NCBI GenBank assembly: GCA_002938075.1
Contig: PTLK01000001.1
Coordinates: 1 to 46,812, forward strand
Length of the DNA stretch: 46,812 nucleotides
Source: Alphaproteobacteria bacterium MarineAlpha3_Bin3
GTDB taxonomy: Bacteria > Pseudomonadota > Alphaproteobacteria > Rhodospirillales > Casp-alpha2
Reading direction: 5' to 3'
Shown here: positions 8,237-37,455 of the stretch, piece by piece
Position numbering within the stretch: the stretch's first letter is position 1
Layout: each line of letters begins with the position of its first letter
Made by a program: the position numbers and the translations under genes
The notes under the pieces: model-generated
What the model saw: only the letters and a program-made list of their open reading frames with translations
What the model was told of the DNA's origin: nothing
Databases searched by the model: none

Positions 8237-8553
8237 CCGGCCGTCCTCTCCGGCTGCGGGCGAAACCATTAAAACGAATCCTGAACTTCGTCACCGGACT
8301 TCAACCCCCTTAATTGGCTCCCGGACACACGGTACTACAACAGGTCCGCCGTTTCGGGGTCAAGCCGTAATTCTCAGGCTCCTCGGGTGCCCCATGCCCG
8401 CCGATTCGCCTGAACCCCCCGTCAGTCCCCAACCATGGGGCGCCGGTTTCGAAAACGGATGCCTTAAGCCCCCGAGGCCCCGCCAGCGCCATAAAATCGC
8501 CGCCAACATAGGCTAGCGTCATTTGCTTGGGAGCCGTATATTTCTTGCCATGA

Positions 8554-10150: not shown

Positions 10151-10198
10151 TCGAGGCCGGAACTCGTTTCGGGCCTCCGTGGCCATAGGGCAAGAATC

Positions 10199-14430: not shown

Positions 14431-14692
14431 GAAACTCGTTTCTTAACTCATCCTGGAAAGGCACCAAAAACCAAACCGCAGAGACACCATCCACTGGAAA
14501 CGAGTCTCCGAGGATAGTTTCATTAATTGTTTTTAGGGGAACTTTTCGACTCCCGCAACCACTCATGTCCATCAAAACGCAAGTTGTAACAATTTATCAA
14601 AACAAGCCTTTTCTGTTATGGTTAACATTATCTTGAGAAAACCTTGGTTTAACCCTTCATAACAATGCAAAAAACATCTTTTGAGGCCATTA

Positions 14693-15307
14693 ATGCATCG
14701 TTCTTCGTTGACCTTTAAAGCTTTAGTTTTATTCGTTTGTTTGGCGGTTTTGCCCGGTCCGGCCACGGCCGAGGCGGGGCCAAGCGACATCGTCGTCCGG
14801 TTCCAGGCCAGCCTTCTCCAGGTCATGAAAGAGGCGGAAAAACTTTCCGTTCATCAACGCTTCGAGCGGCTGGCCCCCAGCGTCGATAAATCCTTTCACA
14901 TTCCGTTGATGATCCAGATCATCTCCAGCGGCTTTTGGAAGAAAGCGACTGCTTCGGAACAAATGCAAGTCGTCGAGGCTTTCCGGCGCATGAGCATTGC
15001 GACCTTGGCCACCCTGTTTGATGGTTATTCGGGCGAGGTCTTCAAATTGGAGAAGCAAATGCCGGGGCCGCAAAAGACCTTACTGGTAATGACGAAGCTC
15101 ATTAAATCAGATAAATCGACGGTCGATATCGCCTATGTCTTGAGGCCCTACAAAGAGGGTTGGCGCATCATCGACGTCATCCTCGATAATGGAATCAGCG
15201 AATTGAAGGTGCGCCAGTCGGAATACAGCCTGATATTAAAAAACAAGGGTATTCCAGGACTGATTTCGCTTTTGAACGGCAAGGCCGACGAGCTGATCTC
15301 CCAATAA
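14693..15307 (+). CDS. MlaC/Ttg2D family periplasmic lipid-binding protein (HpnM-like), paralog 1
   Basis: Signal peptide ending ATAEA. Ttg2D-type pattern F..LAP.VD..F....M......G..W......Q......F.R......A..F...SGE ... W.I.DV...GIS. Tandem with a paralog. Confidence 0.75.
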   Translation: MHRSSLTFKALVLFVCLAVLPGPATAEAGPSDIVVRFQASLLQVMKEAEKLSVHQRFERLAPSVDKSFHIPLMIQIISSGFWKKATASEQMQVVEAFRRMSIATLATLFDGYSGEVFKLEKQMPGPQKTLLVMTKLIKSDKSTVDIAYVLRPYKEGWRIIDVILDNGISELKVRQSEYSLILKNKGIPGLISLLNGKADELISQ

Positions 15308-15357
15308 GATTTCCTCATCCGCCCAAACCCACCACACGGCCGCCACATTTCAATCCT

Positions 15358-15987
15358 ATGAAAAAGACCATGCCACGCTGCTTTTTCACATTCGGGTTAG
15401 TGCCGCTTCTGACGGCCATGGTCGTGATAGCCCCTTCCGCCGGCTGGGCGCAGCCCAGTCCGAGCGATATTGTCACCGCCTTTCACCAAAGCCTGCTCGG
15501 CGTCATGAAGGAAGCCAAGACTCTTGGCGTCAAGGGCCGGTTTGAAAAGCTGGCGTCGCCGCTCAAGCAAAATTTTCATTTTCGGTTGATGACCCAGGTC
15601 GCCGCCGGCTCCTATTGGAGGAAGTCCGGCCCGGCCCAGATCGACAGGCTGGTCGACGCCTTTACCCGCCTTTCCATTAGCACCTATGCCTCGCGGTTCG
15701 ACGGCTATTCGGGCCAATCCTTCGAAACTGAGGGCGAAAAACCGGGGCCGCAGAAAACCATCCTGGTCAAGACCCGGATCATCGATCCCGGGTTCGACCC
15801 GGTGGATCTCACCTACGTCACCCACAAAATCAAGGGGGAATGGCGGATCATTGACGTGCTGCTGGATGCCGGTATCAGCGAACTGGCGGTGCGCCGGTCG
15901 GAATACCGCCGGGTGCTGAAAACCGGGGGGGTCGACGGCCTCATCGAGACCTTGAACCGCAAGGCCGATCAACTGCTGAACCCTTAA
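15358..15987 (+). CDS. MlaC/Ttg2D family periplasmic lipid-binding protein (HpnM-like), paralog 2
   Basis: Collinear in length and motifs with 14693-15307 (FHQSLLGVMKEA, GPQKT(I/L)LV, GEWRIIDV/EGWRIIDV, ISEL.VR.SEY). Confidence 0.75.
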   Translation: MKKTMPRCFFTFGLVPLLTAMVVIAPSAGWAQPSPSDIVTAFHQSLLGVMKEAKTLGVKGRFEKLASPLKQNFHFRLMTQVAAGSYWRKSGPAQIDRLVDAFTRLSISTYASRFDGYSGQSFETEGEKPGPQKTILVKTRIIDPGFDPVDLTYVTHKIKGEWRIIDVLLDAGISELAVRRSEYRRVLKTGGVDGLIETLNRKADQLLNP

Positions 15988-16010: not shown

Positions 16011-17015
16011 CTAACCGCCGTCGCCGTCCCCTTCCGGGACCAGGCCCGGTTTCATGGAAAGAATCGACCCCAGCGTAAAACCCCAGACGATCCAGATCAC
16101 TTCGCGCAACCGGCGGACCACCGATACCGACACGCCCAGGGTCGGCGACCCCGTAATCGCCCCACAGACAAGCAGAAAGGCCCCTTCCTGGGCGCCGATG
16201 GAGGCGGGAATGAAAAACGTCCCGGTCCGCACCAGTTGCGCCACCGCCTCGATGATCCAGGCATCGGCCCAGGATATGGGATGACCCAGAAACAAGAGCG
16301 TGTAATAGATTTCGACCGCGCCCAGCAACCAGTTGACGAAGGCCAGCAACAGGGCGCCGGCGAACCGGCCCCGGGTGCCGGTGTAAAAATGAACCAGCCG
16401 GTCGTCCATGTCGCGGATATGGTGAAGAACGTCCTTAACTCGCGCCCCGAAACGCCAGCCGCCGATCCAGGCCCCGGTCAGCGACGTCACCCCAAAACGC
16501 TGGACGACAAAGAAAAGGGCCACCGCCAACCCCAATACCAACAAGCCGACGCCGGCGACAATTTCATAGGCCCCCGGCAGAGACCCGGCGGCGATCATCA
16601 AGGCGAAACCGCCGACCAGAAAGATCACCAGGGCGATCAGGTTGATGGTCCTAGCCAGGATAAGCGAGGCCGTCCCTTCGCGGTAGCCGATCCCGTAGTG
16701 CTTTTTCAACAGCATCGCCTTGACCGGCTCGCCGCCCATGCTGGCGGCCGGGATGACGTGGTTGAACGCCTCGCCGACCATGCGCAGCACCCAGGCCCGG
16801 TATGCCCAAAGCCCGTTCAGGGGAACGCCGCGGATGGTCATCTGCCAGGTCACGGAATCGATGCTGAAGGCGACGAAATAAATGCCCAGGATGACCAAAA
16901 ACCCGTATCCGACCCGGCCGATCTGGGCGCCGACTTCGGCGACCTCGATTTCGGCGATGACGGCCGCCAGCAACGCCACGCCGATGAGCAGGTAAAAGGC
17001 TTTCAAGTACCGCAT
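16011..17015 (-). CDS. hpnL: flippase-like (LPG-synthase TM / UPF0104) membrane protein, HpnL-like
   Basis: 334 aa polytopic membrane protein with the UPF0104 layout (GGEPVKAMLLKK motif). Lies directly downstream of hpnN and the CDP-alcohol transferase. Confidence 0.7.
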   Translation of the reverse strand: MRYLKAFYLLIGVALLAAVIAEIEVAEVGAQIGRVGYGFLVILGIYFVAFSIDSVTWQMTIRGVPLNGLWAYRAWVLRMVGEAFNHVIPAASMGGEPVKAMLLKKHYGIGYREGTASLILARTINLIALVIFLVGGFALMIAAGSLPGAYEIVAGVGLLVLGLAVALFFVVQRFGVTSLTGAWIGGWRFGARVKDVLHHIRDMDDRLVHFYTGTRGRFAGALLLAFVNWLLGAVEIYYTLLFLGHPISWADAWIIEAVAQLVRTGTFFIPASIGAQEGAFLLVCGAITGSPTLGVSVSVVRRLREVIWIVWGFTLGSILSMKPGLVPEGDGDGG

Positions 17016-17050
17016 GCCCCGGCCTCTACCGGCAAAAACGCTTTAGGGGC

Positions 17051-17712
17051 CTAAACATTGAATTCCCGGGCCCCACGGACGAATTGGGCGATCCAATAGA
17101 CCTGCGAACAAATGGCGCCGGCCGGCAGTAGCAGCCAGGTCAGGTCGAAAAGCGCTAGCGCCAGAACGATAAAACAAAAATCCTCCCGCGTAAGCTCACG
17201 GAAAACATACACCGCCCAATCGCTCAGGCCTTCGGGCTGGCGGGTGGTTTCCGCCTTGTCCTCGTCTTCCGAGGCCGCCTTGTCGCGGGCATCCAGAATG
17301 ATGCCGAGGGCAAAATTGAAGGTGCCGCCGGCGGCCGCGATCCCTCCCAGCCACAGCCACGCGTCATGGCCGAAACCCTTCGCCGTGCCGATCCCAAGGG
17401 CGATGAAAAAGGCGGTGTGGACGATCCAATCGACGAGGGTGTCGAACCACATGCCGAAGGTCGAACACTGGTCCTTGAGCCGCGCGATCTCGCCGTCGCA
17501 GTTGTCCAGAACGTACGTCACGACAAATAGAACCCCCGCCGCCGCCCAGCCGCCGCCCCCTTGCAACAGGCACCAGGACGCCGCCAGGCGGTTGCCAGGG
17601 ATGTCGCCGTGATCTGATTGGCGGTCACCGGCATGCGGGCCAAGGCCGGGGTCGCCAGCATGGATAGATGCTGGATCAGGGGAAACACCGGGGTCTTTTC
17701 TCCAACCGTCAT
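17051..17712 (-). pseudogene. CDP-alcohol phosphatidyltransferase family gene, split by an apparent single-base frameshift near 17581-17600
   Basis: The N-terminus MTVGEKTPVFPLIQ...MPVTANQITATSL reads from the ATG at 17712, which is 3 nt after the hpnN stop. The catalytic part, LAASWCLLQGG...LDNCDGEIARLKDQCSTFGMWFDTLVDW (the D-x2-DG-x2-AR...G-x3-D-x3-D motif), continues in a different frame down to the stop at 17051. Confidence 0.7.
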
Positions 17713-17715
17713 GCA

Positions 17716-20385
17716 TCATTCCCGTTGATTTACGGTCATCCGGTTTCCGGCGGCGACCATCAGCGCCGGCAAAACCACGAGCGTGCACCCGAGGGTCAAG
17801 GTAATGGAAATCGTCAACAGTAGCCCCATGCTCGCCGTCCCCGGGTGCGACGACAACGCAATACTGGCGAACGAACCAATGGTGGTCAAAGCGCTGAAGA
17901 CCACGGCCCGGGGCGTCGACGTTTCGAGAACGCCGCTGACGGAGTTTTCCTCACGTTGCCTCAACACCAGATGAATTCCGCTGGCAACGCCGAGCCCGAA
18001 CAACAAGGGCAGGACGATGATGTTGGCGAAATTGAAGGGTATATCAAAAATCACCGAGGCGGCGACGGTCAGCAGCGCCGCCAGCGTCAGAGGGGCGAAC
18101 ACCAGGACCATGTCGAGCCACCGTTTCAGGACCGCCATCAACAGCACTGAAATCAACGTCACCGAGATGATCCCCGCCTGCCAGAAAGCGGCGACGACCG
18201 CGTTGCCGGCCTCGAGGATGACCACCGACGACCCGATCGCATTGTCGGCAACGCCCTTGACCGATTGAACGAACCGGGTCAGCGCCTCGTGGTCACGGAG
18301 ATCCTCTTTGGGAAACACCTCGAGCCGGGCCCGGCCGTCGGCGGCGACCTGGTTGGCGGCCATATCGGGTGGCAGATTATTCAAATCCACCTGTTCCGCG
18401 GTCAGCGAAAGGTTAAGGGCGTCGAGCCGCCCCGGCAGCGCCGCCAACAGCCGCGTTTCCAGCTCCTTCAGCCCGGCTTCATTGGCCGGACCGTCCCCGA
18501 ACAGGGCCACCAGGGCCCGGGAAAGGCGCCCGGCCGCTTGCGCTTCGCCAGCCGCCCCTTGAAGGGCCGACAATTTTCCGAGCCTGCCGCGGATTTGGCC
18601 GAGCGCCGCCCGGCGGTCCTCCATGGACGGGGGCGCGTCGGTTCCCGCCGCGGCGAAGGACGGCATCAGGAACAGCCCCATGGTGGCGATGAGGTCGAGT
18701 TTCTCCGGCTGATCGGCGGGAACGTAATCGGCCAGGGTGGTGGTGCCGTCGACTTCGGAGAGCGCGTTCATTTTCCCGGCCAGGGCTTGGGCGGCGTCCA
18801 GGTTCGGTGTCAGGACGGTGATCGAATAGGGGCTGGTGCGGTTGTTTTCCATCAAATCGAAAATCGTCGCCACGGATTCGGTTTTCGGATCCTTCAGGTT
18901 CAAGGGGTCGAAATCGAACATCGCCTTCGGAGCCACGAACGCCGCCGCAACCCCCACCGCTAGGGCCGACCAGCAAACGGCTCGGCTGTTGAACCGGATA
19001 AAGGACTGGAAAACCGGTTTCACCGGAATCATCCCTCCGCCGCCTCCCTTGCGGAAGCCCCGCTTGCGGGGCATCACCGTCAACAGCGCCGGTAAAACGG
19101 TGATATTGGCGAAAAAGGCGATGAACATGCCGGTCCCGGCGATCAATCCCAGTTCGGCGAGGCCCAGATAATCCGTCGGCAGGAACGAATAGAAGGCGAT
19201 GGCGGCGCTCAGCGCGCACAAGGTCAACGCCCCGCCGACCTGTTTGGCGGCTTCGGACAGGGCCCGGGCGTGATCGCCATCGCGGTCCATCCCTTCCTTG
19301 TAGCGAAGCCCGTAATGAATGCCGAAATCGACGCTGAGGCCGATAAACAGAACCGCGAACGCGACCGAGATCAGGTTTAACGCGCCGAGGGCCAAAATCG
19401 CGAAGGCCGCCGTCCAAATCAGGCCCATCAGCAACGTCACCAGCGCCGCCGCCGCCAGCCTCAGCGACCGGAACCCGATCAGCAACAGAACCACGACCAG
19501 GAACAGCGACACTCCCGCGGCCACGCCCATGCCTTTTTCGACGCTTTGCAGTTCCTCATCGGCGAGCGCGGCGGAGCCCGTCAGGCGCACCAGGACGCCG
19601 TTTTCCCGGGTCAGGCCCAGGTCCCGGGCGGCGGCGCGCACGCCCGCCATCGCCTTCGCCGCCGGCTGCAAGGACTTGAAATCGAGAGCCGGCTGGAGGA
19701 CGAGGATGCGGCGGTTGGCCAACACTTCGTCTTCCGGGGCGACGGCGCCCGTCATCAACGTCTGCCAGGACAATTGACTGAATTTTCCGGCCTTTTGGGC
19801 TTCGGCGACATCGGCCAGGGCGTCCAGCACCGTCATCAATTCAAAGGGGGCCTCGGCGGGGTCCTTGAGGAATTCGTCGATGGCCAGGTCAAGCATGCGA
19901 AACAGGCCGACGAGGCTGGGGTCCCGCCACAGGGCGCCGAGGAAGGGCTGCGCTTCGGCCAGCCGGTCGCTGAGCTCGTAAAGGTCATCCAGCTCCAAAT
20001 ACAACAACCCGTTGCGGCGCAGGAAATCGTTGCCGGCCGGGTCGTCGACGCGGCCGAACAATTTCGGTTGCCGGCGAAGCCGCTCGGCCAACGCCCGGGC
20101 GGCGTCATCGGAAAGGTCCGGGCTGTCGCCATCGATGACGACAATCAGGTTGTCGGAAAACTGCGGAAAGGCCTTGTCCAGTTCCGCCGAATGGCGGCGG
20201 AACGCCAGGTCCGGCGACAACATGTCGCCGGTGTCGGTATTGATGCGGATATTTTCCGCCAGATAGACCGCGGCGGCGGCGCTGAGAAGCACGGAGGCGG
20301 CAACCACCAGCCAGGCCAACCGGCGCACCCCATCGGTCCAGCGCACAAGGGCTTGGCGGTATGCTTGGGCAGGCGTCGTGGTCAC
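17716..20385 (-). CDS. hpnN: hopanoid transporter, RND/MMPL superfamily (HpnN)
   Basis: 889 aa with two 6-TM bundles and two large periplasmic loops. HpnN-type N-terminus (INTDTGDMLSPDL), in a hopanoid gene context. Confidence 0.88.
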   Translation of the reverse strand: MTTTPAQAYRQALVRWTDGVRRLAWLVVAASVLLSAAAAVYLAENIRINTDTGDMLSPDLAFRRHSAELDKAFPQFSDNLIVVIDGDSPDLSDDAARALAERLRRQPKLFGRVDDPAGNDFLRRNGLLYLELDDLYELSDRLAEAQPFLGALWRDPSLVGLFRMLDLAIDEFLKDPAEAPFELMTVLDALADVAEAQKAGKFSQLSWQTLMTGAVAPEDEVLANRRILVLQPALDFKSLQPAAKAMAGVRAAARDLGLTRENGVLVRLTGSAALADEELQSVEKGMGVAAGVSLFLVVVLLLIGFRSLRLAAAALVTLLMGLIWTAAFAILALGALNLISVAFAVLFIGLSVDFGIHYGLRYKEGMDRDGDHARALSEAAKQVGGALTLCALSAAIAFYSFLPTDYLGLAELGLIAGTGMFIAFFANITVLPALLTVMPRKRGFRKGGGGGMIPVKPVFQSFIRFNSRAVCWSALAVGVAAAFVAPKAMFDFDPLNLKDPKTESVATIFDLMENNRTSPYSITVLTPNLDAAQALAGKMNALSEVDGTTTLADYVPADQPEKLDLIATMGLFLMPSFAAAGTDAPPSMEDRRAALGQIRGRLGKLSALQGAAGEAQAAGRLSRALVALFGDGPANEAGLKELETRLLAALPGRLDALNLSLTAEQVDLNNLPPDMAANQVAADGRARLEVFPKEDLRDHEALTRFVQSVKGVADNAIGSSVVILEAGNAVVAAFWQAGIISVTLISVLLMAVLKRWLDMVLVFAPLTLAALLTVAASVIFDIPFNFANIIVLPLLFGLGVASGIHLVLRQREENSVSGVLETSTPRAVVFSALTTIGSFASIALSSHPGTASMGLLLTISITLTLGCTLVVLPALMVAAGNRMTVNQRE

Positions 20386-20650
20386 GGTTTAGGCCCCTCC
20401 TTCCGTCGCCGCTTATAGCCCTGTTGGGACTATCGGAACAAGGAAGGTCAGATTTTTTTGATCCGGTAGACCTGAGGGGTCCTCGCCTATTGCGGTTCAA
20501 GCATCATAACACTCGGTGAAGATACGCAGGCTGGGCGTCTCGCATCGCGCCACCTCCAGGCGGCCCCTTGACTCCGCGAGGCCGGGGTAACACCCTCCCC
20601 CGGCCCGGCCCATTGGGCCTTCGGGCCCCGGAGTTTCTAAGGACGAAACG

Positions 20651-21265
20651 ATGAAAACCCCGCCCTGGGACCAGCGGATCGCGCGGGTCCTCGTCAAACC
20701 CCTGGTCAAATCGCCGGTGACCCCCAACCAGATGACGATGTTCACCCTGACGGTGGCGCTGGCCGGCGCCGGTCTGTTGGCCACCGGCGATGCCGTCAAC
20801 GCTGATTGGGGCGCCGGGCTATTCGTGCTGGCCCGGTTCCTCGACCACTTTGACGGCGAGCTGGCGCGCCAGAAGGACATGACGTCGAGGCTCGGCTATT
20901 ACCTGGATTACGTTTCCGGCGCCTTGAGCTACGCCGCCCTGTTCCTGTGCATGGGTATCGGATTCATCGATTCCCCGCTTGGCCCCTGGGCCATCGTCTT
21001 AAGCGCGGCGGGGGCCGCCTCGGCGGTGGTTTCCATGTTCACCAATCTAGGCATCGACAAGCAGCTCGACCTCGACGAAGACGCCGAACACGACGCCGTC
21101 GGTTATCCGGGCTTCGCCGGTTTCGAATTGGAGGACGGCATCTACCTGCTGGCGCCGATCACCTGGGCCGGGTTCCTGATGCCGTTTTTTGTCGCCGCCG
21201 GGATTGGCGCCGGCGTCTACTGCCTGTGGACCTGTTGGACCCTATTGAGGCTCCGAAGGGGGTAA
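20651..21265 (+). CDS. CDP-alcohol phosphatidyltransferase family protein (small, about 200 aa)
   Basis: VTPNQMT N-terminal motif. Catalytic motif LDHFDGELARQKDMTSRLGYYLDYVSGAL. Confidence 0.8.
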   Translation: MKTPPWDQRIARVLVKPLVKSPVTPNQMTMFTLTVALAGAGLLATGDAVNADWGAGLFVLARFLDHFDGELARQKDMTSRLGYYLDYVSGALSYAALFLCMGIGFIDSPLGPWAIVLSAAGAASAVVSMFTNLGIDKQLDLDEDAEHDAVGYPGFAGFELEDGIYLLAPITWAGFLMPFFVAAGIGAGVYCLWTCWTLLRLRRG

Positions 21266-21850
21266 TTTTTTCCGGTACATGGCAAAAAACAAGGCGGCCA
21301 CCAAAGGAGCGATGTAAAAGGCCGCCACCAGCAGCCCTTCCGCCTGCCCGAACCAGATGAAAACCGGGATCAGCAACACCGCGTCGTCGGCGTCGAAACC
21401 GGCGACGCTGGGAAGCTCGGCGGCGCGGGCGCCTTTCAATTCCTCGATCCGCATCACCAGCCACAGGATCGCGGCCACCGAAACCCCGGCCATGAGGCCC
21501 ATGGAAACGGACAGCAACCCGTACCCGCCGTCGCGCAAGCCGACGCCGAGGCCGATCAGCACCAGGGCGTTTGAAACCGCGTCGGCGATCATGTCGTAGC
21601 GGTGGCCCGAGGCGCTGGTCCGGCCGGTCAGCCGCGCCAGATCGCCGTCGGCCCGGTCCAGCACCACCGACAGCACGAAGACCGCGGCGCCGAGGTTCTG
21701 CCATTCGGGGCCGATGGCCAGGGCTGCCGCCGCCGCGATTCCGGTCAGCAGCCGCGCGGTGGTCACCTGATTGGGCGTCACGGCGGTATGAATCAGGGGC
21801 TTCACCACCGTGACCCGGGCGACGCGGTGTATCCAGGTGTCGTGGCTCAC
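21242..21850 (-). CDS. CDP-alcohol phosphatidyltransferase family protein, translationally coupled to ppd
   Basis: VTPNQVT motif. Catalytic motif LDRADGDLARLTGRTSASGHRYDMIADAV. The GTG start overlaps the ppd stop (GTGA). The 3' end overlaps the convergent paralog by 24 nt. Confidence 0.8.
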   Translation of the reverse strand: MSHDTWIHRVARVTVVKPLIHTAVTPNQVTTARLLTGIAAAAALAIGPEWQNLGAAVFVLSVVLDRADGDLARLTGRTSASGHRYDMIADAVSNALVLIGLGVGLRDGGYGLLSVSMGLMAGVSVAAILWLVMRIEELKGARAAELPSVAGFDADDAVLLIPVFIWFGQAEGLLVAAFYIAPLVAALFFAMYRKKLPPSEPQ

Positions 21851-23028
21851 GTATTAAGCCCGGCGGATGCCTTTTGGCCTTCGCCGGCCCCCGAGGCGAG
21901 GAATTCCTTGAACCGGAGCGCCACTTCGGGCGGCTTGACGCTCGGCCGTCCCAGGTCCTTCATCGAACCCGGCGCGATGCGCATATGAATCAGATGCGGG
22001 CCGCGACCCGATTGCGCCGATTTCAGCGCCTCGGCGAAACCGCCGAGGCCGTCGCAGCGGTAACTTTTCCGGTACCCGCAACCGGCGGCGACCCCGGCGA
22101 AATCGACCGATTGGGAAACCGTCGGCTGGCCGCCGGTGGAATCGTAGGTGCCGTTGTCGAGAACGATGTGGATGAGGTTTTGCGGCCCATAGGCGCCGAT
22201 GGTGGCCAGGGTCCCCATTTTCATCAACGCCGCGCCGTCACCGTCCAGCACCACCACCGGATTGCCGACGTTCAGCGCCACGCCCAGCCCCATGGCGGCG
22301 GCGCAACCCATGGACCCGACCTGATAGAGGTGCTGCCGCCGGTCGCCGAGGGTAAAAAGCTCGCGCCCGCATTTCCCCGTCGTGGCGATGATGCCGGCGT
22401 CATCGGCAACGCCTGACAGCACCGTTTCCAGGGCCTGCATTCGGGCCGGCAAGGGGCCTTGGTCCAACAGGTCGGCGGCCTCGCCCCTTGGCCGCGCTTC
22501 CGGCGCTGACCAAGAGTCCGCGCCGTCGTTGCCGACATCTCCTTTTTGCATGATGAAGGCGAACGGCAGGCCGGTTTTATCCATCGTCGCCCCGGCTTCC
22601 CCGATCGCCGCCGCGATTTCGGCATCCTCGGCCGGGAACGGCCGGTGCGGGACCTCCATCAGCTGCAAAAGGCCCGGCGTGATCCGGCCCATCAGCTCAT
22701 GCTGGGGCTCGTCCGTGAGCCCCGGCCCGGCCCGCCAGGTGACGATCAAAAGCGTCGGGATGCGGAACGGAAAGTTCAGCGACGTGATCGGGTTGACGGC
22801 GTTGCCGAGGCCGGAATTCTGGCACATGACGGCTGTCTTGTGCCCGGCCAGCCAGGCGCCCGACGCGATGGCCACGGCTTCGCCCTCGCTGGCCGCGGCG
22901 ACATAGGTCAGCCGCTTGTCGGTAATGGCGCCGTTGATCAGCGGCGTCAGAAAGGAACAGGGAACGCCGGTATAGAAATCGAACCCGGCGTCGAAACCCG
23001 AACCGAGAAACGCATCGGTAGCGATCAC
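21847..23028 (-). CDS. phosphonopyruvate decarboxylase (ThDP-dependent)
   Basis: [13 protein letters not shown]-terminus, [15 protein letters not shown], and the ThDP motif [12 protein letters not shown]...NN/DNG. Tail GRPSVKPPE is typical of Ppd. GTG at 23028 overlaps the upstream stop (GTGA). The longer ORF to 23079 is rejected. Confidence 0.8.
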
Positions 23029-23351
23029 AAGAACTTGCCCGCCCTGGTGAAGTCGGCGGCGTCGTCCACGTCGAGCCATTGCCCCGGCACGTAGACGGCG
23101 CGAATGGACGTTCCCTTGTCGATCAGGCGCTGCAGCAGGTCGAGCATGCTCGACATCGACAGGCCCGAGGCCCAGATGCCCTTGAACCCCGCTTCCTCGA
23201 CGATTTTCGCCGACAGCCCGTTGCGGGCCTCCATCAGGAATTCCAATTCCGGGGACGTCAACATGGCGCGCAAACGTGCCGCCTTCGACGGCGCCTCAGC
23301 CTGGCTGTCCCAGTTGTGGTCGGCTTTTCCCCGCATCGAAGAATCCCTCAA
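23025..23351 (-). pseudogene. PEP phosphomutase remnant: N-terminal ~68 aa of Ppm fused to the C-terminal ~40 aa of a nucleotidyltransferase-like sequence
   Basis: [41 protein letters not shown] matches the conserved Ppm N-terminus. The catalytic core that should follow is absent. The sequence instead continues as [22 protein letters not shown], which resembles the G.W.D(V/I)D...D tail of LicC-type NTases. Confidence 0.65.
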
Positions 23352-23540
23352 ATCAATGGATTGTTATTCCGGGTCGGCATATACCCCTGATTCCCCGGAG
23401 GTTCAAGGATTCCCCCTTTTAACCCAAGTCAAGGAAGGACCCGGGATTTTCCGGAAAATCCTCCCAGCGGCGTTGAAGCGCGGGGGCGCCCATCCTAAAC
23501 TCCGCCGGTTTGAGGCGCACCCCAACCCCGAGGACTGCCG

Positions 23541-24299
23541 ATGCTGAACACGCCGATCATCAACGACGAGCAAATGCGGGCTTTTGAGCGTGACGGATAC
23601 CTGGTCATGAGAAGCGCCTTCAACGAAGACGAAATGGCCCTTATCGACACCTGGACCAGGGAATTGCTGGCGCTGCCCGAGGAATCCGGCAAGCACTGGG
23701 TCTTCCACGAGGAAAGTCTGAAGGGCAACGGCAAGGACCTGGTCAACCGCATCGAGAACACGGCGCCGTTTCATCACGGCTTCGCCGAACTGAGCACGGT
23801 CCTCAAGGCGCCGGCGGGGCAACTCCTGGGAGAACAGGCGGTGTTGTTAAAGGAAAAGGTCAACTTCAAGATGCCCGGCGGCGGCGGCTTCAAGCCGCAT
23901 CAGGATTCACAGGCCGGCTGGGACAAGTATGCCGATTTCTATGTCAGCGCCCTGGTCAGCATCGACGAGGCGACGGTCGAAAACGGCTGCCTGCAACTGT
24001 GCGCCGGCCACCATGAACGCGGCCTGTTCACGTCGTGGGAACCGCTGACCGAGGAAGACATGGAGGGGATGGAATTCGTGCCCTGCCCGACCCAGCCCGG
24101 CGACGTGGTGTTGTTCGACTGTTTCGCGCCGCACAGCTCGGAACCCAACCTGACCGACAAGACGAGGCGCCTCTATTACGCCACCTATAACCGGCTGTCG
24201 GCCGGCGACCACAGGACGCAATACTACGCCGACAAGCACAAGAATTACCCGCCCGACATCGACCGCGATCCGGCAAAAGAATACGTCTTCAGGGTCTAG
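23541..24299 (+). CDS. phytanoyl-CoA dioxygenase (PhyH) family Fe(II)/2-oxoglutarate dioxygenase
   Basis: 252 aa. HxD facial-triad motif (KPHQD), distal His (FAPHSSEPN) and R..YY. Divergent from the ppm-remnant operon. Confidence 0.75.
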   Translation: MLNTPIINDEQMRAFERDGYLVMRSAFNEDEMALIDTWTRELLALPEESGKHWVFHEESLKGNGKDLVNRIENTAPFHHGFAELSTVLKAPAGQLLGEQAVLLKEKVNFKMPGGGGFKPHQDSQAGWDKYADFYVSALVSIDEATVENGCLQLCAGHHERGLFTSWEPLTEEDMEGMEFVPCPTQPGDVVLFDCFAPHSSEPNLTDKTRRLYYATYNRLSAGDHRTQYYADKHKNYPPDIDRDPAKEYVFRV

Positions 24300-24341
24300 C
24301 CGCTTTTAGACGCCCTAAAGGCCATCCCCAAACCCCCGCCC

Positions 24342-25196
24342 ATGGATCCACTCGTCCTTACCCTGGTCCTGACGGCGGCGGTCCTTCACGCGACCTGGAA
24401 CGCGCTGATCAAAAGCGGCGGCGACCCGTGGGTGCGCCTCGCCGTGGTCAATGGCGTCGGCATCGTTTGCGCGGCCGCGTGGCTGCCCTTCGTCGAGGCG
24501 CCGAATGCCGAGGCATGGCCGTTCATTCTGGGGTCGGTCGCCATTCATCAGGTCTATTTCGTCTGCGTCGCCCTGCAGTACCGTTTTGGGGACCTGTCCC
24601 ACGTCTATCCGATCTCGCGCGGCACCGCCCCGATCCTGGTCGCCGCCGCGGCGTTTATTTTCGCCGGTGAAACCCTGAGCCCGGCCGGCGCCGTCGCGGT
24701 GATCGTCATTTCCGCCGCCATCATCAGCTTGACGTTCGACAGCCGTTGGCCGACGGGAGAAGGCAAGGGCGTCTTCTTCGCGCTTTGCACAAGCGTCACC
24801 ATCGCCGTTTACACGGTGATCGACGGCCTCGGCGGGCGCACGGCGGACGATGTGTTCGCCTATATCGTCTACCATTTCCTGATTAACGGGATTCCCTTCG
24901 GGCTGCTGGTGATCTTCATGCGCCGGCGCGTTCTAGGGGCGACCCTGAAGGGGCACTGGAAGACCGGCTTCTTCGGCGGGGTTCTGGCCTTTCTGGCTTA
25001 TGGACTGGTGATCTGGGCGATGACCCTGACGCCGATGACCTATGTCTCGGCGCTGCGCGAGACCAGCGTCATCCTGGCGGCGCTGATCGGCGCCATCATG
25101 CTCGGCGAACCCTTTGGCCGGCGGCGCGTCATCGCCGCCGCCTGCGTCGCCTTCGGCGTCGTGCTGTTGCAATTCAGCAAGTACTCATTTTCATAA
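24342..25196 (+). CDS. EamA/DMT superfamily transporter
   Basis: 284 aa with 10 predicted TM helices in two EamA-like halves. Confidence 0.75.
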   Translation: MDPLVLTLVLTAAVLHATWNALIKSGGDPWVRLAVVNGVGIVCAAAWLPFVEAPNAEAWPFILGSVAIHQVYFVCVALQYRFGDLSHVYPISRGTAPILVAAAAFIFAGETLSPAGAVAVIVISAAIISLTFDSRWPTGEGKGVFFALCTSVTIAVYTVIDGLGGRTADDVFAYIVYHFLINGIPFGLLVIFMRRRVLGATLKGHWKTGFFGGVLAFLAYGLVIWAMTLTPMTYVSALRETSVILAALIGAIMLGEPFGRRRVIAAACVAFGVVLLQFSKYSFS

Positions 25197-25444
25197 TTCC
25201 ATGACGCTTAGGACGGCTTCCCGAAGTCATCCCGTTAGGCGCCGGCCCCGCCGTGATGCTGGACATCACAAGAGGGCGGCAACGCGGCCGGGGGCCTCGG
25301 GAAGCCGCCCGCGGGATCGCCTCTCCCGCCCCCTGGGTGCGTCGGGACCGCTTGCCGATGGCCCCGCATCGCCTGCGCGTCCCCTTCTGCCGAGGAAACG
25401 GGAGAGGCGATCCTACGGATCACGGAATTATGAAAGTGAGTACT
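25180..25444 (+). repeat. ~265-nt nested inverted-repeat element (structured RNA or MITE-like)
   Basis: Three helices found by hand pairing. Outer: 25180-25204 with 25420-25444 (21 contiguous pairs including one G.U, one mismatch, then 3 more pairs). Inner 1: 25214-25224 with 25297-25307 (11 bp). Inner 2: 25314-25328 with 25399-13 i.e. 25399-25413 (15 bp perfect). The left outer arm contains the EamA stop codon. Confidence 0.7.
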
Positions 25445-25475
25445 GGGGAGCGTGAAACGGCGGTCCGAGTGAGCG

Positions 25476-26288
25476 TTATTCGCCGGAGGCCTGGTCGATC
25501 CGGGGCCGTTCGGCTGCCAGCGTTTCCTCGGCGAAGAAATCGCTTACCAGCGGCATGATGATCTTTTCCGCACACAGCAGGTCGGAAGGGAAATCGATCT
25601 CGATCCAGGGGATGCCGGTGATGTCCTCGTAACCGAAGGTGCCCTCGGGTTCGGCCGCCAGCACGTCGCGCATGGCTTCTTCGTAGGTGACGTCACATTC
25701 GCCCCGCTCGATATAGACGCCGGCGGCATCGGCGATTTTGGCCGCCACATCGCCGGACATTTTCAAAAAACCCGGCCACTCGCCGATGTCGTCATAGTCG
25801 TCGGTGACTTTTTTCCCGAAATCGACCGGCTCGCCGTCGCGGATGCAAAGTTTCACCGGCTCTTCGCCGGGTTCGAAATCACGGTCGATGATAAAGCAAT
25901 TGTCGTGCACGGAACGAATGAGCCGGCTCATCATTTCCGGGGGATAGAGAACGTCCGAATCCATGAACAGGACGTCGTCGCCGCTGCGCAATTCCTCGCC
26001 CGCGGTCCACAGCGACACGATCGGGCCTTCCTTGAAACGGGGATTGAAAACGGAGCGGATAAACCCCCCGGAACCCCCGGGCGCAACTTTTTCGGCCTCG
26101 GCCAAAAGGTCTTCCTTGCGGTGACCGACGATCAGGACAAGCTCGTCGACGCCGAGCGCTTTCAGAATCCCGACATGGCGCTCGAGAAGGGTCTTGCCCT
26201 CGAAACGCAGCAAGGCCTTGGGCAAGCCGTCGTTTTGATCGCCATAAAGGCGTCTTCCAACGCCGGCGGCTAGCATGACCGCTTTCAT
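25476..26288 (-). CDS. LicC/PntC-like nucleotidyltransferase (putative cytidylyltransferase)
   Basis: MKAVMLAAGVGRRL...LPKALL N-terminal NTP-transferase signature. C-terminal W.EIDFPSDL. 270 aa. Lies 84 nt downstream of hpnA on the same strand. Confidence 0.75.
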   Translation of the reverse strand: MKAVMLAAGVGRRLYGDQNDGLPKALLRFEGKTLLERHVGILKALGVDELVLIVGHRKEDLLAEAEKVAPGGSGGFIRSVFNPRFKEGPIVSLWTAGEELRSGDDVLFMDSDVLYPPEMMSRLIRSVHDNCFIIDRDFEPGEEPVKLCIRDGEPVDFGKKVTDDYDDIGEWPGFLKMSGDVAAKIADAAGVYIERGECDVTYEEAMRDVLAAEPEGTFGYEDITGIPWIEIDFPSDLLCAEKIIMPLVSDFFAEETLAAERPRIDQASGE

Positions 26289-26372
26289 CAGACTTTCGCC
26301 ATTCCCTATTGAAACCAGGTGGACGGAGTCATAAAACGCCGCCGCCCCTAGGGCAAGGTTCAGTTCGAAGGA

Positions 26373-27371
26373 TCATGCGGTTTTCCCAAGATAGCCGTTT
26401 TCGCGGAACCACCGGACGGCGTCCCGCAGCGCCTTTGCCGCCGGACGGGGCGCATATCCCAAGGCCCGCGCCGCCTTTTGGTGGGAATAATACATCTTCT
26501 TTTTCGCCATCCTGAGGCCGTTGACGGTGACGAAGGGTTCGCTGCCGCCGGTCAGGCGCGTCCAGGCTTCGGCGACCACCGCGACGGGCATGATCAGGTT
26601 GTGGGGAATCCTGAGCCCCGGCGCCTTGCCGCCGGTGATGTCGGCGATGGTGGAGAGGATTTGCTTGAGGCTCAGGTTTTCGCCGCCGAGGATATAGCGC
26701 TCCCCCGCCTGTCCTTTATCGAAGGCCAGCAGGTGGCCTTCGGCGACGTCGTCCACGTGGACGACGTTGAGCCCGGTATCCACGTAGGCCGGCATTTTCC
26801 CCGACGCCGCCCCGACGATCATGCGCCCGGTGGGGGTCGGCTTGATGTCGCGGGGGCCGAGGGGCATCGACGGGTTGACGATGACCACCGCCAGGCCCTC
26901 GGAATCCGCCAACGCCCGGACCTCGGCTTCGGCCAGGAACTTGGATTGCTTGTAAGGCCCGATCATATCCTCGAACCCGACCGGCGTTTCCTCGTCCGAC
27001 GCCTGGTCACCCGGCAACAAACCCAAGGTGGCGACGGAAGACGTATAGACGATGCGCTCGACGCCGGCGTCGCCCGCCGCCAGCATGATCGCCCGGGTTC
27101 CTTCCACATTGGCCTTGAACATCGGCGCCGGGTCGGGCGCCCACAACCGGTAATCGGCGGCGACGTGGAAAAGGCCCCGGCACCCCTTGAGGGCTTTGCC
27201 GAGGGTGGCGGGCTCGGTCAGGTCGCCTTCGACCACCTCGACGGACAGGCCGTCGAGGTTGCGGCGGTCGCTGGCCGGCCGGACCATGGCGCGCACCTCA
27301 TGGCCGCGTTCGATCAGCTTTCTGAGGACCGCCGAGCCGACGAATCCGGTGGCGCCGGTGATAAAAATCAT
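26373..27371 (-). CDS. hpnA: hopanoid-associated NAD-dependent epimerase/dehydratase family protein (HpnA)
   Basis: MIFITGATGFVGSAV Rossmann motif and YKQSK catalytic motif, in an hpn context. ATG at 27371 preferred over the ORF start at 27425. Confidence 0.8.
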   Translation of the reverse strand: MIFITGATGFVGSAVLRKLIERGHEVRAMVRPASDRRNLDGLSVEVVEGDLTEPATLGKALKGCRGLFHVAADYRLWAPDPAPMFKANVEGTRAIMLAAGDAGVERIVYTSSVATLGLLPGDQASDEETPVGFEDMIGPYKQSKFLAEAEVRALADSEGLAVVIVNPSMPLGPRDIKPTPTGRMIVGAASGKMPAYVDTGLNVVHVDDVAEGHLLAFDKGQAGERYILGGENLSLKQILSTIADITGGKAPGLRIPHNLIMPVAVVAEAWTRLTGGSEPFVTVNGLRMAKKKMYYSHQKAARALGYAPRPAAKALRDAVRWFRENGYLGKTA

Positions 27372-27568
27372 CGACCGTTTCTTTTGTTCGCTGTCATTAC
27401 CGGTCTTCCAGCCAAAAAAAAGCACTCAAATACAGGTTTTGCATTTAAAAAACCCGCCGAAAAGGGTAAACACCCCTTCACCTTTGGCCGGATAGTCTCT
27501 ATTTTCAACAATGATCCTTGCCGCCCTTTGGCGAGCTTGGCAATCGGCAAGGTTATTGGGTATCGATC

Positions 27569-28543
27569 ATGGCACCGAAAGAGCACCAGAAAATCGACGT
27601 ATGGCTGGCCTCCCCGCGCGGGTTTTGCGCCGGCGTGGAGCGCGCCATCGAAATCGTCGAACAGGCCATCGACCTCTATGGTCCGCCGGTTTACGTGCGC
27701 CATGAAATCGTCCACAACAAGCGCGTGGTCGAGACTCTCAGGGCCAAGGGGGCTGTTTTCGTCGAAGAGGTGGACGACGTGCCGGACGGCGCGGTAACGA
27801 TTTTCAGCGCCCACGGCGTTTCCGAAGCCGTCGAGAACCAAGCCAAGGAGCGCGACCTGCCAGTCATCGACGCCACCTGCCCGTTGGTGTCCAAGGTCCA
27901 CAAGGAAGGGCAGAACCACGCCAAGATGGACCGCCAGGTCATTCTGATCGGCCACGAGGGTCACCCGGAAGTCGAAGGCACCCAGGGCCGCATTCTCGGT
28001 GGCGTGTTGCTGGTGATCAAGCCCGAAGACGTGGCGATGCTTGAGGTCCGGGATCCGGACAAGCTCGCCTACGTCACCCAAACGACGCTCAGCGTCGATG
28101 AGACCCGCAACGTGATCGAGGCCCTGAAGAAGCGTTTCCCGACCATTATCGGCCCCGACGTCAAGGACATCTGTTACGCCACCCAGAACCGCCAACAGGC
28201 CGTCCGGAACCTGGCCAAACACGTGGATTTACTGTTCGTGGTCGGCGCCACCAACAGCTCCAATTCCAACCGCCTGCGCGAGATCGGCACCGAGATCGGC
28301 GTTCCCAGTTACCTGATCGACGATGCCGACAACCTGGACCCGGCGTGGCTCAAGGATGTCAATATCGTCGGCGTCACCGCCGGCGCCTCGGCGCCCGAGG
28401 AACTGGTCCAGGAAGTGATCGCCCGTCTTGGTGATTTCGCCGAGGTCAAATTGACGAAGGTCCACGGGGTGGAGGAAAACATTACCTTCAAGCTTCCCCG
28501 CGAGCTCGAGGAAGCCGTTCGCCAAAACAGACAGCGCGCCTAG
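27569..28543 (+). CDS. ispH: 4-hydroxy-3-methylbut-2-enyl diphosphate reductase
   Basis: [38 protein letters not shown]. The three Cys ligands sit in their expected motifs. Confidence 0.92.
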
Positions 28544-28556
28544 GGTAGCTGCTTCG

Positions 28557-29720
28557 ATGTCCATCCCCTTGATCCAGAAAATCCGTGTTGGCGCCTATAT
28601 CCTTCGCCAACGGCTGAAGGGCGTCGACAAATACCCCCTGGTCCTGATGCTGGAGCCGCTGTTCCGCTGCAATCTGGCCTGCGCCGGCTGCGGCAAGATC
28701 GACTACGAGGACGAGATCCTCAACAAACGGCTCAGCCTCCGCGAATGCCTGGACGCGGTCGATGAATGCGGCGCCCCGGTGGTCTCCATCCCCGGCGGCG
28801 AGCCTTTGATTCACAAGGATATCGTCGAAATCGTCGAGGGCATCGTCGCCCGCAAGAAATTCGTTTATCTGTGCACCAACGCCTTGCTGCTGGAAAAGAA
28901 CCTCGGACGCTTCACGCCGTCGCCGTACCTGACCTTTTCGGTCCATCTCGACGGCCTGGAGGAACACCACGATCACGCGGTGTCGCAAAAGGGCGTTTTC
29001 AAACGCGCCATTTCGGCCATCCGCGCCGCCAAGGCCAAGGATTTCAGGGTCAACGTCAACTGCACGCTGTTCGATCAGATGAACGCCCGCGAAGCGGCGG
29101 AGTTTTTCGATTTCGTCACCGACGACCTGGGCGTCGAGGGGATTACCGTATCGCCGGGCTATGCCTATGAGCGCGCGCCGGACCAGGAACATTTCCTCAA
29201 CCGGACCAAGACCAAGCAGTTGTTCCGCGACATCTTCAAGCTTCAGGGAAAGACCAAATGGCGGTTTTCGCAATCGGTCCTGTTCATGGACTTCCTGGCC
29301 GGAAACCAGCAATACCAGTGCATGCCCTGGGGCAATCCGACGCGCAATATCTTCGGCTGGCAGCGCCCGTGTTATTTGCTGGGCGAGGGATACGCCGAAA
29401 GTTTCGATCTGTTGATGGCCGAAACACGGTGGGAGGATTACGGCACCGGCAATTACGAAAAATGCGCCGACTGCATGGTCCATTGCGGCTACGAGGCGAC
29501 CGCCGTCACTGACGTCGTCGCCCATCCCCTGAAGGCGCTGGGGGTCTATTTGAAGGGCATCGACACGGATAAGCCGATGGCCCCGGAAATCCCCCTCGAC
29601 AATCAGCGTCCGGCCGAATTCGCCTTCGAAGACCTGATTAAAACCCTGAGCCAGAAAAAGGCGGAGGAAGAGTCACTCAAGGCCGAACGACGGGCCGAGA
29701 TGGCCAGCAACGCGGCGTAA
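28557..29720 (+). CDS. hpnH: adenosylhopane synthase, radical SAM (HpnH)
   Basis: LMLEPLFRCNLACAGCGKI radical-SAM cluster motif. The conserved C-terminus (CADCMVHCGYE) is typical of HpnH. Confidence 0.9.
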   Translation: MSIPLIQKIRVGAYILRQRLKGVDKYPLVLMLEPLFRCNLACAGCGKIDYEDEILNKRLSLRECLDAVDECGAPVVSIPGGEPLIHKDIVEIVEGIVARKKFVYLCTNALLLEKNLGRFTPSPYLTFSVHLDGLEEHHDHAVSQKGVFKRAISAIRAAKAKDFRVNVNCTLFDQMNAREAAEFFDFVTDDLGVEGITVSPGYAYERAPDQEHFLNRTKTKQLFRDIFKLQGKTKWRFSQSVLFMDFLAGNQQYQCMPWGNPTRNIFGWQRPCYLLGEGYAESFDLLMAETRWEDYGTGNYEKCADCMVHCGYEATAVTDVVAHPLKALGVYLKGIDTDKPMAPEIPLDNQRPAEFAFEDLIKTLSQKKAEEESLKAERRAEMASNAA

Positions 29721-37338: not shown

Positions 37339-37455
37339 GTCATCCTCCGAAAGCCTTGGCTTGCATGTTATCAGGTTTGGCAAACCCTGTCGGCCTGGAT
37401 TCCCTGTTCCGGCCCAAAAACCTTGTGTCTTTAATGTTCCCGGGCATGCCTTCGC

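Follow-up and report, generated by a model that had tools for sequence, protein, structure and literature searches.

The commonest type of predicted phosphonolipid gene cluster has been without an identified product since 2013. It corresponds to the Group 1 phosphonolipids of Yu et al. (2013) and to the Burkholderiales_CDP-OH family of Li and Horsman (2022; PMC8942020). Its seven-gene core comprises phosphoenolpyruvate (PEP) mutase (Ppm) fused to PntC, phosphonopyruvate decarboxylase (Ppd), a 2-aminoethylphosphonate (AEP) transaminase, an alpha-ketoglutarate/Fe(II) oxygenase, a second PntC and two phospholipid-type genes; the predicted product, a 1-hydroxy-AEP lipid, has never been isolated (PMC8942020). 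Here we describe a module at 16011-27371 of a 46,812-nucleotide stretch of DNA from Alphaproteobacteria bacterium MarineAlpha3_Bin3 (assembly GCA_002938075.1, contig PTLK01000001.1, positions 1-46,812; this whole stretch is called the window). The module lies among genes for hopanoid synthesis and export. A first-pass annotation of the window had set these genes apart from the named hpn set. The module is not of a new kind; by gene content it appears to be an alphaproteobacterial variant of the Group 1 cassette.

Phosphonate-terpenoid clusters have been noted in Acetobacteraceae (Roseomonas, Belnapia; PMC8776678). In the copy that we inspected on a plasmid of Roseomonas marmotae, a Ppm-nucleotidyltransferase fusion, Ppd, a nucleotidyltransferase (NTase), an LPG_synthase_TM protein and a CDP-alcohol phosphotransferase (CPT) lie between MMPL/VacJ genes and ispH-hpnH-hpnG-shc-hpnEDC-hpnB-hpnA. 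The paper contains, for acidophilic members of the family, a one-sentence speculation on an 'undiscovered terpene-phosphonate', and offers neither an analysis nor a product. The idea of a phosphonate-bearing hopanoid, which the first-pass annotation had thought new, had thus been touched on once, although our literature searches turned up no phosphorus-containing bacteriohopanepolyol.

Other known systems resemble single steps. In the PntC/LicC pathways (PMC6697681), a small phosphonate or phosphate is activated by a PF12804 cytidylyltransferase, often fused to Ppm, and is then transferred to a cell-surface acceptor. In the window the transfer step would fall to a CDP-alcohol phosphotransferase and not to a LicD-type enzyme, with a lipid, not a glycan, as the probable target. 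The Ppm-NTase fusion is the commonest form of Ppm, and selectivity of PntC versus LicC is steric and gives no readout in sequence motifs (Rice et al. 2019, PMC6697681); prediction of NTase substrate specificity from sequence was rejected as an approach for this reason.

The IPCT/DIPPS (AF2299-type) enzymes share with the window a soluble CMP/CDP-activated donor made beside the transferase. AF2299 (4O6M, E = 7e-5) is the closest solved structure to CPT1, one of the window transferases, the best NCBIfam match of the window NTase is the IPCT domain, and a CPT-NTase fusion exists (P0176, see below). In contrast, the domains are split in the window and reversed in order in the fusion, the scores are 33-60 bits against a cut-off of 580, and the context is one of phosphonate and not of inositol phosphate. 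In MprF, as here, a flippase-type LPG_synthase_TM domain is paired with an enzyme that makes a lipid with a modified head group; the synthase partner here is a CDP-alcohol transferase and not an aminoacyl-tRNA-dependent enzyme, and flipping would be expected by analogy. Who makes and re-uses marine phosphonates is an open part of the marine phosphorus cycle, and PMC8316502 describes AEP as turning over rapidly in seawater.

Cassette composition and linkage to hopanoid genes

Open reading frames (ORFs) were called using their high-GC3, low-GC2 codon signature and were then scanned with Pfam and NCBIfam profiles. All the genes listed by the first-pass annotation were found in their places. The Group 1 components present are Ppd (21847-23028, minus strand; TIGR03297 score 432.6, cut-off 312.5), the oxygenase, one PF03706 protein and three PF01066 transferases, CPT1 (21242-21850, minus strand), CPT2 (20651-21265, plus strand) and CPT3 (17051-17712, minus strand, frameshifted). 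A Ppm carrying the catalytic EDKxxxxxNS motif and an AEP transaminase are missing. The oxygenase is a PhyH Fe(II)/2-oxoglutarate dioxygenase (23541-24299, plus strand; PF05721, 102 bits). Among NCBIfam profiles it scores highest with NF052437, the PhnY*-type phosphonate hydroxylase (165, below cut-off), and its position next to ppm/ppd is kept in relatives. It forms an operon with an EamA-family transporter (24342-25196, plus strand; PF00892; best NCBIfam match phn_DUF6, TIGR03340, 146 bits, below cut-off), a gene seen only in the closest relatives L010, L012 and L021. As to the pair of PntC-type NTases, the stand-alone LicC/PntC-like copy is intact (25476-26288, minus strand; PF12804; PDB matches 1JYK (LicC), E = 6e-8, and 6PD1 (PntC), E = 1e-4), whereas the fused copy is reduced to about its last 35 residues.

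The HpnL-like gene (16011-17015, minus strand) encodes a flippase-like membrane protein (PF03706 LPG_synthase_TM, 93 bits) that gave no match in a PDB sequence search. The first-pass annotation had counted it among the hpn genes. Because its TIGR03476 score of 159.2 is below the cut-off of 195.65, and because the gene is present in the Burkholderia cassette, with no hpn markers nearby, and in the Roseomonas cassette (L089), in both of them together with a CDP-alcohol transferase, it appears to belong to the core of the phosphonolipid cassette and not to the hpn set. A role for the stand-alone NTase as sugar-1-phosphate partner of HpnA/HpnB was considered and ruled out, since its orthologs adjoin ppm without an adjacent hpnA in Burkholderia, Roseomonas and L092.

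The hopanoid genes flanking the module meet curated cut-offs: HpnA 506, HpnB 522, HpnC 276, HpnG 211, HpnH 549 and HpnM 168/200. On one side lie a MlaA/VacJ-like lipoprotein (13555-14430, minus strand; PF04333, 222 bits), which would belong to the export side, and two copies of the MlaC-like HpnM (14681-15307, plus strand, PF05494, TIGR03481 168.4; 15358-15987, plus strand, TIGR03481 200.3; cut-off 160.1). The position of MlaA beside both HpnM genes is kept in relatives. The HpnN-family RND lipid exporter (17716-20385, minus strand) lies within the module and scores 998 (cut-off 752) with the hypothetical equivalog TIGR03480 but 762 (cut-off 1100) with the equivalog NF052374. On the other side, upstream of the NTase, is the SDR protein HpnA (26373-27371, minus strand; TIGR03466 506, cut-off 368), followed at 27518-32353 by the hopanoid core: ispH (plus; PF02401), hpnH (plus; TIGR03470, 549), hpnG (minus; TIGR03468, 211) and shc (minus; SQHop_cyclase N/C, 384/467 bits).

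The tight couplings reported by the first-pass annotation are all present. The Ppm remnant and ppd, and ppd and CPT1, are each coupled by a GTGA overlap, and spacers of 35 nt and 84 nt separate CPT3 from the HpnL-like gene and hpnA from the NTase on the same strand. An ATG three nucleotides past the hpnN stop is the start of CPT3; whether there is a gap or an overlap depends on the frame. CPT1 and CPT2 are convergent and overlap by 24 nt.

The module shares its core with Burkholderia Group 1, and the window proteins match those of Burkholderia cenocepacia at 29-54% identity. On chromosome 2 of B. cenocepacia (L090) the order is CDP-alcohol transferase, LPG_synthase_TM, NTase, Ppm-NTase, Ppd and transaminase, and tblastn with window proteins found no hpn marker genes within 12 kb. 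The window differs in that the cassette is interleaved with hopanoid genes, has three transferases where Burkholderia has a single one, includes among them one without the fourth signature aspartate, and has neither AEP transaminase nor Ppm catalytic domain. The Burkholderia oxygenase was not detectable with the window PhyH as query.

A cultured strain, Roseomonas marmotae 1318, carries the complete cassette on plasmid p1318-3 (NZ_CP061094) in the order VacJ, MMPL, polyprenyl synthetase, NTase, aepX (the fusion), aepY, LPG-synthase-domain protein, AEP transaminase, CDP-alcohol transferase, ispH, hpnH, hpnG, shc, hpnE, hpnD, hpnC, glycosyltransferase and hpnA. Its Ppd is 63% identical to that of the window. 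Unlike the window copy, it has an intact aepX, an AEP transaminase, a single transferase with full signature and another gene order. A second cultured strain with an intact cluster is Plastoroseomonas hellenica LMG 31523.

To survey the linkage, one genome per GTDB species was scanned for Ppd, giving the 80 closest loci, mostly from metagenome-assembled genomes (MAGs) of marine or aquatic Rhodospirillales. Window proteins were mapped onto these loci, with 10 kb of flank each, by tblastn. The counts rest on tblastn and not on the ORF-picking heuristic used for the 80 loci, which mislabels some antisense ORFs (families f18 and f27). Markers of the hpn set (Shc, HpnH or HpnN) flank 28 of the 80 loci and, among loci of at least 15 kb, 17 of 43. 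CPT1 or CPT2 is found in 26 loci. Of these, 18 also have hpn markers, and among the eight that do not, five are contigs of 8.8 kb or less. At least five different gene orders occur among the linked loci. The order of the window recurs in L010, L012, L014-L017, L021-L023, L031, L037, L041, L053, L060 and L082. L045 and L094 have the order hpnN-NTase-CPT-hpnA, L064 a third, and Rhodopila (L083), Plastoroseomonas hellenica (L086) and Roseomonas further ones.

Since many independent genomes show the linkage, with the genes rearranged in several ways, it is far beyond chance, and a random insertion is excluded. The co-occurrence in related Rhodospirillales and the intact versions that the first-pass annotation had proposed to look for both exist (the latter, for example, in L010). 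This type of locus ties the cassette to hopanoid synthesis and export across two alphaproteobacterial orders through interleaving, coupled operons and fusions. The AEP transaminase lies beside Ppd in seven loci (L025, L045, L064, L068, L083, L089 and L092), but no member of the clade closest to the window has it. At other loci a MlaC/HpnM-like gene lies directly beside ppm-NTase with no hopanoid genes nearby (L027, L030, L032, L034, L036, L044, L049, L050, L054, L055, L074 and L092); such company of ppm at non-hpn loci fits a lipid product.

As far as we have found, it is new that the linkage is so widespread in marine Rhodospirillales, that domain fusions occur, that some transferases form a subfamily without the fourth aspartate and that the HpnL-like gene belongs with the cassette; the structure of the Ppm deletion and the recurrent state in which ppm is lost and ppd kept are new as well.

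Loss of Ppm and state of the remaining genes

The ORF overlapping the start of ppd (23025-23336, minus strand) encodes 103 amino acids, beginning like PEP mutase and ending like the C-terminus of a nucleotidyltransferase; its PF13714 match is limited to positions 1-44 of 240. The first-pass annotation called it a PEP-mutase remnant; it is not a simple truncation but joins the N-terminus of Ppm to the C-terminus of the NTase. Its intact counterpart is a fusion of 554-587 amino acids with PEP_mutase at 24-267 and NTP_transf_3 at 312-431 (554-residue numbering) in L010, an uncultured Thalassospiraceae MAG that is the closest relative with an intact fusion gene (Ppd identity 77%). The catalytic EDKxxxxxNS motif reads EDKLFPKTNS in this fusion and is present at many other loci.

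Alignment with the L010 fusion shows that 451 codons have been deleted in frame, with a junction between WASGLSMS and SMLDL and microhomology of about 3 nt. Lost with these codons are the active site of Ppm and nearly the entire fused transferase. About 66 N-terminal residues of Ppm and the last 35 or so residues of the NTase are retained, and both the native start and the native stop, which overlaps the ppd start, survive. We compared nine assemblies of the window species, namely the window and L001-L008 (metagenome contigs with an identical CPT1 protein; this protein is indexed in 153 blocks of the metagenome assembly collection). The same 103-residue ORF is present in 8/8 of the other assemblies and thus in all nine, with an exact match to the junction sequence in four of these contigs.

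The 46.8-kb window contains no second ppm, and tblastn gave no match to an AEP transaminase (Aminotran_5) anywhere in it. Because Ppm has been deleted in frame, the transaminase is missing and CPT3 is frameshifted, the gene content indicates that de novo synthesis of phosphonate cannot start from the window locus. The pathway that the first-pass annotation read from these genes therefore has no start from PEP in this genome. The other module ORFs are full length. The window copy itself is partly degraded, and the finding is more modest there.

Similar losses are found elsewhere. The fusion gene is intact in nine hpn-linked loci (L010, L012, L013, L014, L017, L022, L041, L053 and L060), whereas Ppd is intact with no neighbouring ppm in L015/L082, L016, L021, L023, L025, L031, L035, L037 and L071. 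The two kinds of lineage are interleaved on a neighbour-joining Ppd tree, which gives no more than a rough idea of how many losses were independent. In L021 an 87-residue ORF ending ...ADLIAAGRFL overlaps the ppd start. It was considered as a hidden stand-alone ppm and ruled out, being an independent remnant of the 3' end of the fusion gene. The deletions in the window and in L021 are independent, yet each leaves an ORF upstream of ppd whose end still overlaps the ppd start in the native way. A stand-alone ppm hidden in L015/L082 was likewise ruled out, as the gene between PhyH and Ppd there is a membrane protein with a weak GlpM-like match. These loci suggest that ppm has been lost repeatedly while ppd stayed constrained. 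The retention of ppd and the downstream genes points to salvage of phosphonate into lipids or to another source of phosphonopyruvate.

Selection was examined with NG86 omega values, which are near saturation where synonymous divergence (dS) is above 1. All the values are below 0.5. Ppd omega is 0.06-0.08 in pairs of ppm-less lineages. In the pair L015/L082 (dS about 1), which plausibly share one ancestral ppm loss, omega is 0.06 for Ppd, 0.02 for CPT1, 0.02 for CPT2, 0.09 for PhyH and 0.04 for the NTase; therefore the rest of the module stays strongly constrained without a neighbouring ppm. Within the window species, nonsynonymous/synonymous polymorphisms in the nine assemblies number 45/44 in the module and 84/66 in the hpn/transport genes (Fisher p = 0.42). 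Taken as a check for relaxed selection, omega is somewhat raised (Ppd and CPT1 against L009), yet there is no nonsynonymous excess within the species.

Transferases, fusions and the proposed pathway

The three transferases are distant paralogs with 33-42% identity over partial lengths. Against the PgsA, PssA, PIPS, ClsA and AIPS equivalogs they score 19-52 bits, with cut-offs of 107-580. They thus do not group with ordinary phospholipid synthases, a placement that would have spoken against the first-pass reading: no PgsA, PssA, PIPS or Cls cut-off is approached. Members of this family have four signature aspartates that serve in metal binding and catalysis, as seen in the AF2299, IPCT-DIPPS and PIPS structures. 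CPT1 has the complete DxxDGxxAR...GxxxDxxxD signature (DRADGDLAR...GHRYDMIAD). In CPT2 (DHFDGELAR...GYYLDYVSG) glycine replaces the fourth aspartate (D4).

This substitution is not confined to the window. In the 25 ORFs assigned to CPT2, D4 is glycine in 21, valine or alanine in two divergent ones and aspartate in one; the remaining ORF is a fragment without the motif. An exhaustive HMMER search of 1.84 billion representatives showed the CPT2 family to be small: 40 proteins reach E <= 1e-30, and 308 reach E <= 1e-10. We inspected the best 150 (P0121-P0270), confirming fusions by Pfam. At the D4 position of these global representatives, aspartate occurs in 69, glycine in 36, alanine in 7, serine in 3 and valine in 2; the D4-less transferases are therefore, judged from sequence, a real conserved subfamily. 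CPT2 is better conserved than CPT1 (omega 0.02-0.19) and almost always lies tail-to-tail with it. CPT2 may serve as the non-catalytic subunit of a heterodimer, with which tandem fusions fit, or may be an enzyme with a different mechanism. In the L045/L094 lineage all CPT copies in the locus are D4-less, and the tandem protein P0122 is D4-less in both halves.

CPT3 also has the full D..DG..AR..G...D...D motif, but in a broken reading frame. Its true frame starts at the ATG at 17712, reads MTVGEKTPVFPLIQ... and ends after 64 codons (17518-17712), because of a 1-nt deletion at 17589/17590 (ACC-GCC instead of ACCGGCC). The first-pass annotation was thus right to place a transferase start 3 nt after the hpnN stop, but that frame does not extend through the gene. 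The catalytic part runs on in another frame, and for this reason a mechanical ORF list shows 17051-17788. The deletion is common to the window and L008 (2/9), and the frame is intact in L001-L007 and in L009; it is either a strain variant or an assembly error.

Natural fusions connect the transferases to the other steps. A CPT+NTP_transf_3 fusion (P0176) occurs among the best 150 CPT2-family representatives. CPT+LPG_synthase_TM fusions are P0155, P0224 and P0249, and P0122 and P0244 are tandem CPT-CPT proteins. In P0228 (1089 amino acids; L091, 176-3445), a CPT1-like domain is fused to an MMPL/HpnN-like protein. Overlapping operons repeat these associations: L094 (557-3518) and L045 (2352-7400) have hpnN-NTase-CPT(-CPT)-hpnA with 4-nt overlaps, and P0122 sits in an hpnN-NTase-CPT-CPT-hpnA operon whose HpnA is bona fide (TIGR03466, 513 bits). 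The second-best NCBIfam match of HpnA in the L094/L045 operon is SdmB, a sterol C4-demethylation reductase (240-250 bits). L092 contains a compact cassette of PhyH, a CPT-NTase fusion, Ppm-NTase, Ppd, transaminase and MlaC.

Because natural fusions join these domains, three predictions are supported: that the transferase uses the product of the NTase, as in IPCT/DIPPS; that it works with the flippase-like protein, like synthase and flippase in MprF; and that it is tied to an HpnN-type exporter. The scheme of activation, transfer, flipping and export put forward by the first-pass annotation thus gains backing from fusions and overlapping operons, but its chemical steps, head group, acceptor and direction of transport we infer from gene identities, synteny, the deletion, fusions and selection, which were observed.

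We propose that, in intact relatives, the Ppm-NTase fusion and Ppd would convert PEP to phosphonoacetaldehyde, from which the transaminase would make AEP. The PhnY*-like dioxygenase would hydroxylate the phosphonate at C1 and the PntC-like NTase would form the CMP-phosphonate. A small membrane CDP-alcohol phosphotransferase could then transfer the phosphonyl group to a lipid hydroxyl at the inner leaflet, the LPG-synthase-TM protein would flip the lipid product, and HpnN, HpnM and MlaA would move it outward alongside hopanoids. In the window species the phosphonate would be supplied in trans, made through a second ppm at another genomic site or salvaged as marine AEP.

For the window, then, we lean towards a copy of the Group 1 cassette nested in a hopanoid locus beside hpnN, two hpnM genes and mlaA, with its entry step destroyed and the rest probably running on phosphonate supplied in trans; we hold this to be somewhat better than an even bet. 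The remaining window genes most likely still act on such phosphonate, on evidence of modest strength.

Several points weigh against this proposal. Not one organism has yielded a characterised product of such a cassette (PMC8942020), and our literature searches turned up no characterised Burkholderia phosphonolipid. Canonical catalysis is uncertain for part of the family, CPT2 and the L094 tandem CPT lacking signature aspartates. The case for residual function without a local ppm and AEP transaminase rests on selection statistics of modest power, and the model does not explain why Ppd is retained where ppm is absent. Within the species CPT3 is disrupted in the window and L008, and EamA is split into ORFs of 58 and 205 amino acids in one assembly, L007 (6356-7210). 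Ppd and CPT1 have omega 0.42 against L009, the highest in that comparison (hpnN and the HpnL-like gene 0.18-0.21). Close relatives also appear to be eroding. In L009, the closest (dS about 0.1), only the last 530 nt or so of the fusion gene remain, with unrelated sequence in place of its 5' part and a break that differs from that of the window, and a SulP permease is inserted before hpnN (L009 1-917; 4132-5904). In L011 (2385-7872) Sel1-repeat, beta-propeller and DsbD-like genes replace CPT1 and CPT2, and CPT3 and the HpnL-like gene are absent.

Acceptor, alternative readings and neighbouring features

The acceptor would be either a glycerolipid or a bacteriohopanepolyol, and the computed data favour neither. 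For a glycerolipid speak the autonomous cassettes of Burkholderia, L092, L047/L073 and L080, in which no hpn marker was detected within 10-12 kb, and the fact that no phosphorus-bearing hopanoid was found in the literature; both also count against a hopanoid. A possible but doubtful alternative is that the acceptor is a bacteriohopanepolyol hydroxyl (for example, the C35-OH of bacteriohopanetetrol), to which an AEP or hydroxy-AEP head group would be attached, with flipping by the HpnL-like protein and export by HpnN. Profile scans of the window locus found hpnG and hpnH but no hpnI, hpnJ, hpnK or hpnO, so bacteriohopanetetrol with free hydroxyls is expected. The cassette lies inside hpn loci in many lineages and several rearranged orders, CPT3 starts at the very end of hpnN, the L094/L045 operon includes a bona fide HpnA, P0228 joins a transferase to an HpnN-like RND transporter, and a 'terpene-phosphonate' has been suggested independently (PMC8776678). 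However, co-location could mean shared export or regulation and not a shared molecule, P0228 comes from a single 3.6-kb contig, and the specificity of the HpnN-family transporter is a prediction, its NF052374 score being below cut-off. HpnA may, as sequence matches hint, act on a triterpenoid rather than a sugar.

We have also considered the complete scheme, in which the CPTs (possibly as CPT1/CPT2 heterodimers) place AEP or hydroxy-AEP on bacteriohopanetetrol at the inner membrane, the HpnL-like protein flips the product and HpnN/HpnM/MlaA export it. The many marine lineages without ppm would use salvaged dissolved phosphonate, so that environmental AEP would enter a membrane lipid and escape mineralisation. 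Taken as a whole we regard it as unlikely. If a hopanoid were the acceptor, the product would belong to a phosphorus-containing hopanoid class never described and would provide a new class of geochemical biomarker.

It is equally unlikely, in our estimate, that after the loss of ppm the whole phosphonate module became a decaying, non-functional relic whose intact ORFs merely reflect recency. Decay would account for the presence of the ppm deletion in all nine assemblies, the absence of the AEP transaminase, the lesions in CPT3 (2/9 assemblies) and EamA (1/9), the raised omega of Ppd and CPT1 against L009 and the further losses in the sister lineages L009 and L011. Against it, polymorphism in the module is no worse than in the hopanoid genes, every omega is below 0.5, and the older ppm-less clade L015/L082 has kept five of the genes at omega 0.02-0.09 over dS of about 1. 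Also, the deletion in the window preserves both the reading frame and the translational coupling to ppd.

Less probable still is a phosphate-ester head group, the NTase and CPTs of ppm-less lineages handling phosphocholine, phosphoethanolamine or inositol phosphate in the manner of a split IPCT/DIPPS or of LicC. The best relative of the NTase in the structural database is indeed the phosphocholine enzyme LicC, its best NCBIfam match is the IPCT domain and those of the CPTs are archaetidylinositol-phosphate synthase and DIPPS (all below cut-offs), and the steric basis of PntC/LicC selectivity (PMC6697681) means that motifs do not separate the two. However, Ppd and the PhnY*-like hydroxylase would have no role in such a pathway, yet are under purifying selection in the same loci, and in intact relatives the NTase and CPT orthologs sit with Ppm-NTase, Ppd and AEP transaminase.

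It is hardly credible that the phosphonate genes were inserted by chance and have nothing to do functionally with their hopanoid and export neighbours. The cassette is autonomous in Burkholderia and L092, but linked loci with differing gene orders are found in both Rhodospirillales and Acetobacteraceae, the genes are interleaved and not inserted as a block, they are translationally coupled to hpnN and hpnA, and one natural protein fuses a CPT to an HpnN-like transporter.

The remnant/ppd operon and the PhyH-EamA operon diverge from an intergenic region at 23337-23540, identified by direct reading. It contains an 18-bp perfect palindrome, GGATTTTCCGGAAAATCC, at 23444-23461. This was considered as a conserved regulatory motif and ruled out, being species-restricted: it is present in all assemblies of the window species and in none of the relatives. 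Downstream of it a CTTGAA...GGTATAT stretch resembles an RpoH-type promoter by eye; promoter and terminator scans gave no signal above shuffled expectation.

Other genes of the window were noted. A sigma-70-family factor of 293 amino acids (12234-13115; regions 1.2, 2 and 4; RpoH-like size) adjoins mlaA at the edge of the locus and is kept there in most relatives with the window gene order. At its start, hpnC (35807-36700) overlaps with a third MlaC-like gene (36697-37383), which unlike the copies at 14681-15987 is below the HpnM cut-off (97.8 against 160.1). An iron-containing alcohol dehydrogenase (38811-40118; PF00465, 435 amino acids) is situated some 16 kb from ppd and is of the same Pfam family as the phosphonoacetaldehyde reductase PhpC; its neighbours are FAD oxidase, DAO and lactate-dehydrogenase-like genes and it may be unrelated. 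Finally, a cyclic-nucleotide signalling patch contains two cyclases, a GAF-GAF-PAS adenylate/guanylate cyclase (2507-4849) and a CHASE2 cyclase (5984-8269), with a cNMP-binding protein (5517-5933) between them, and is followed by MotA/MotB-like genes at 9356-11035.

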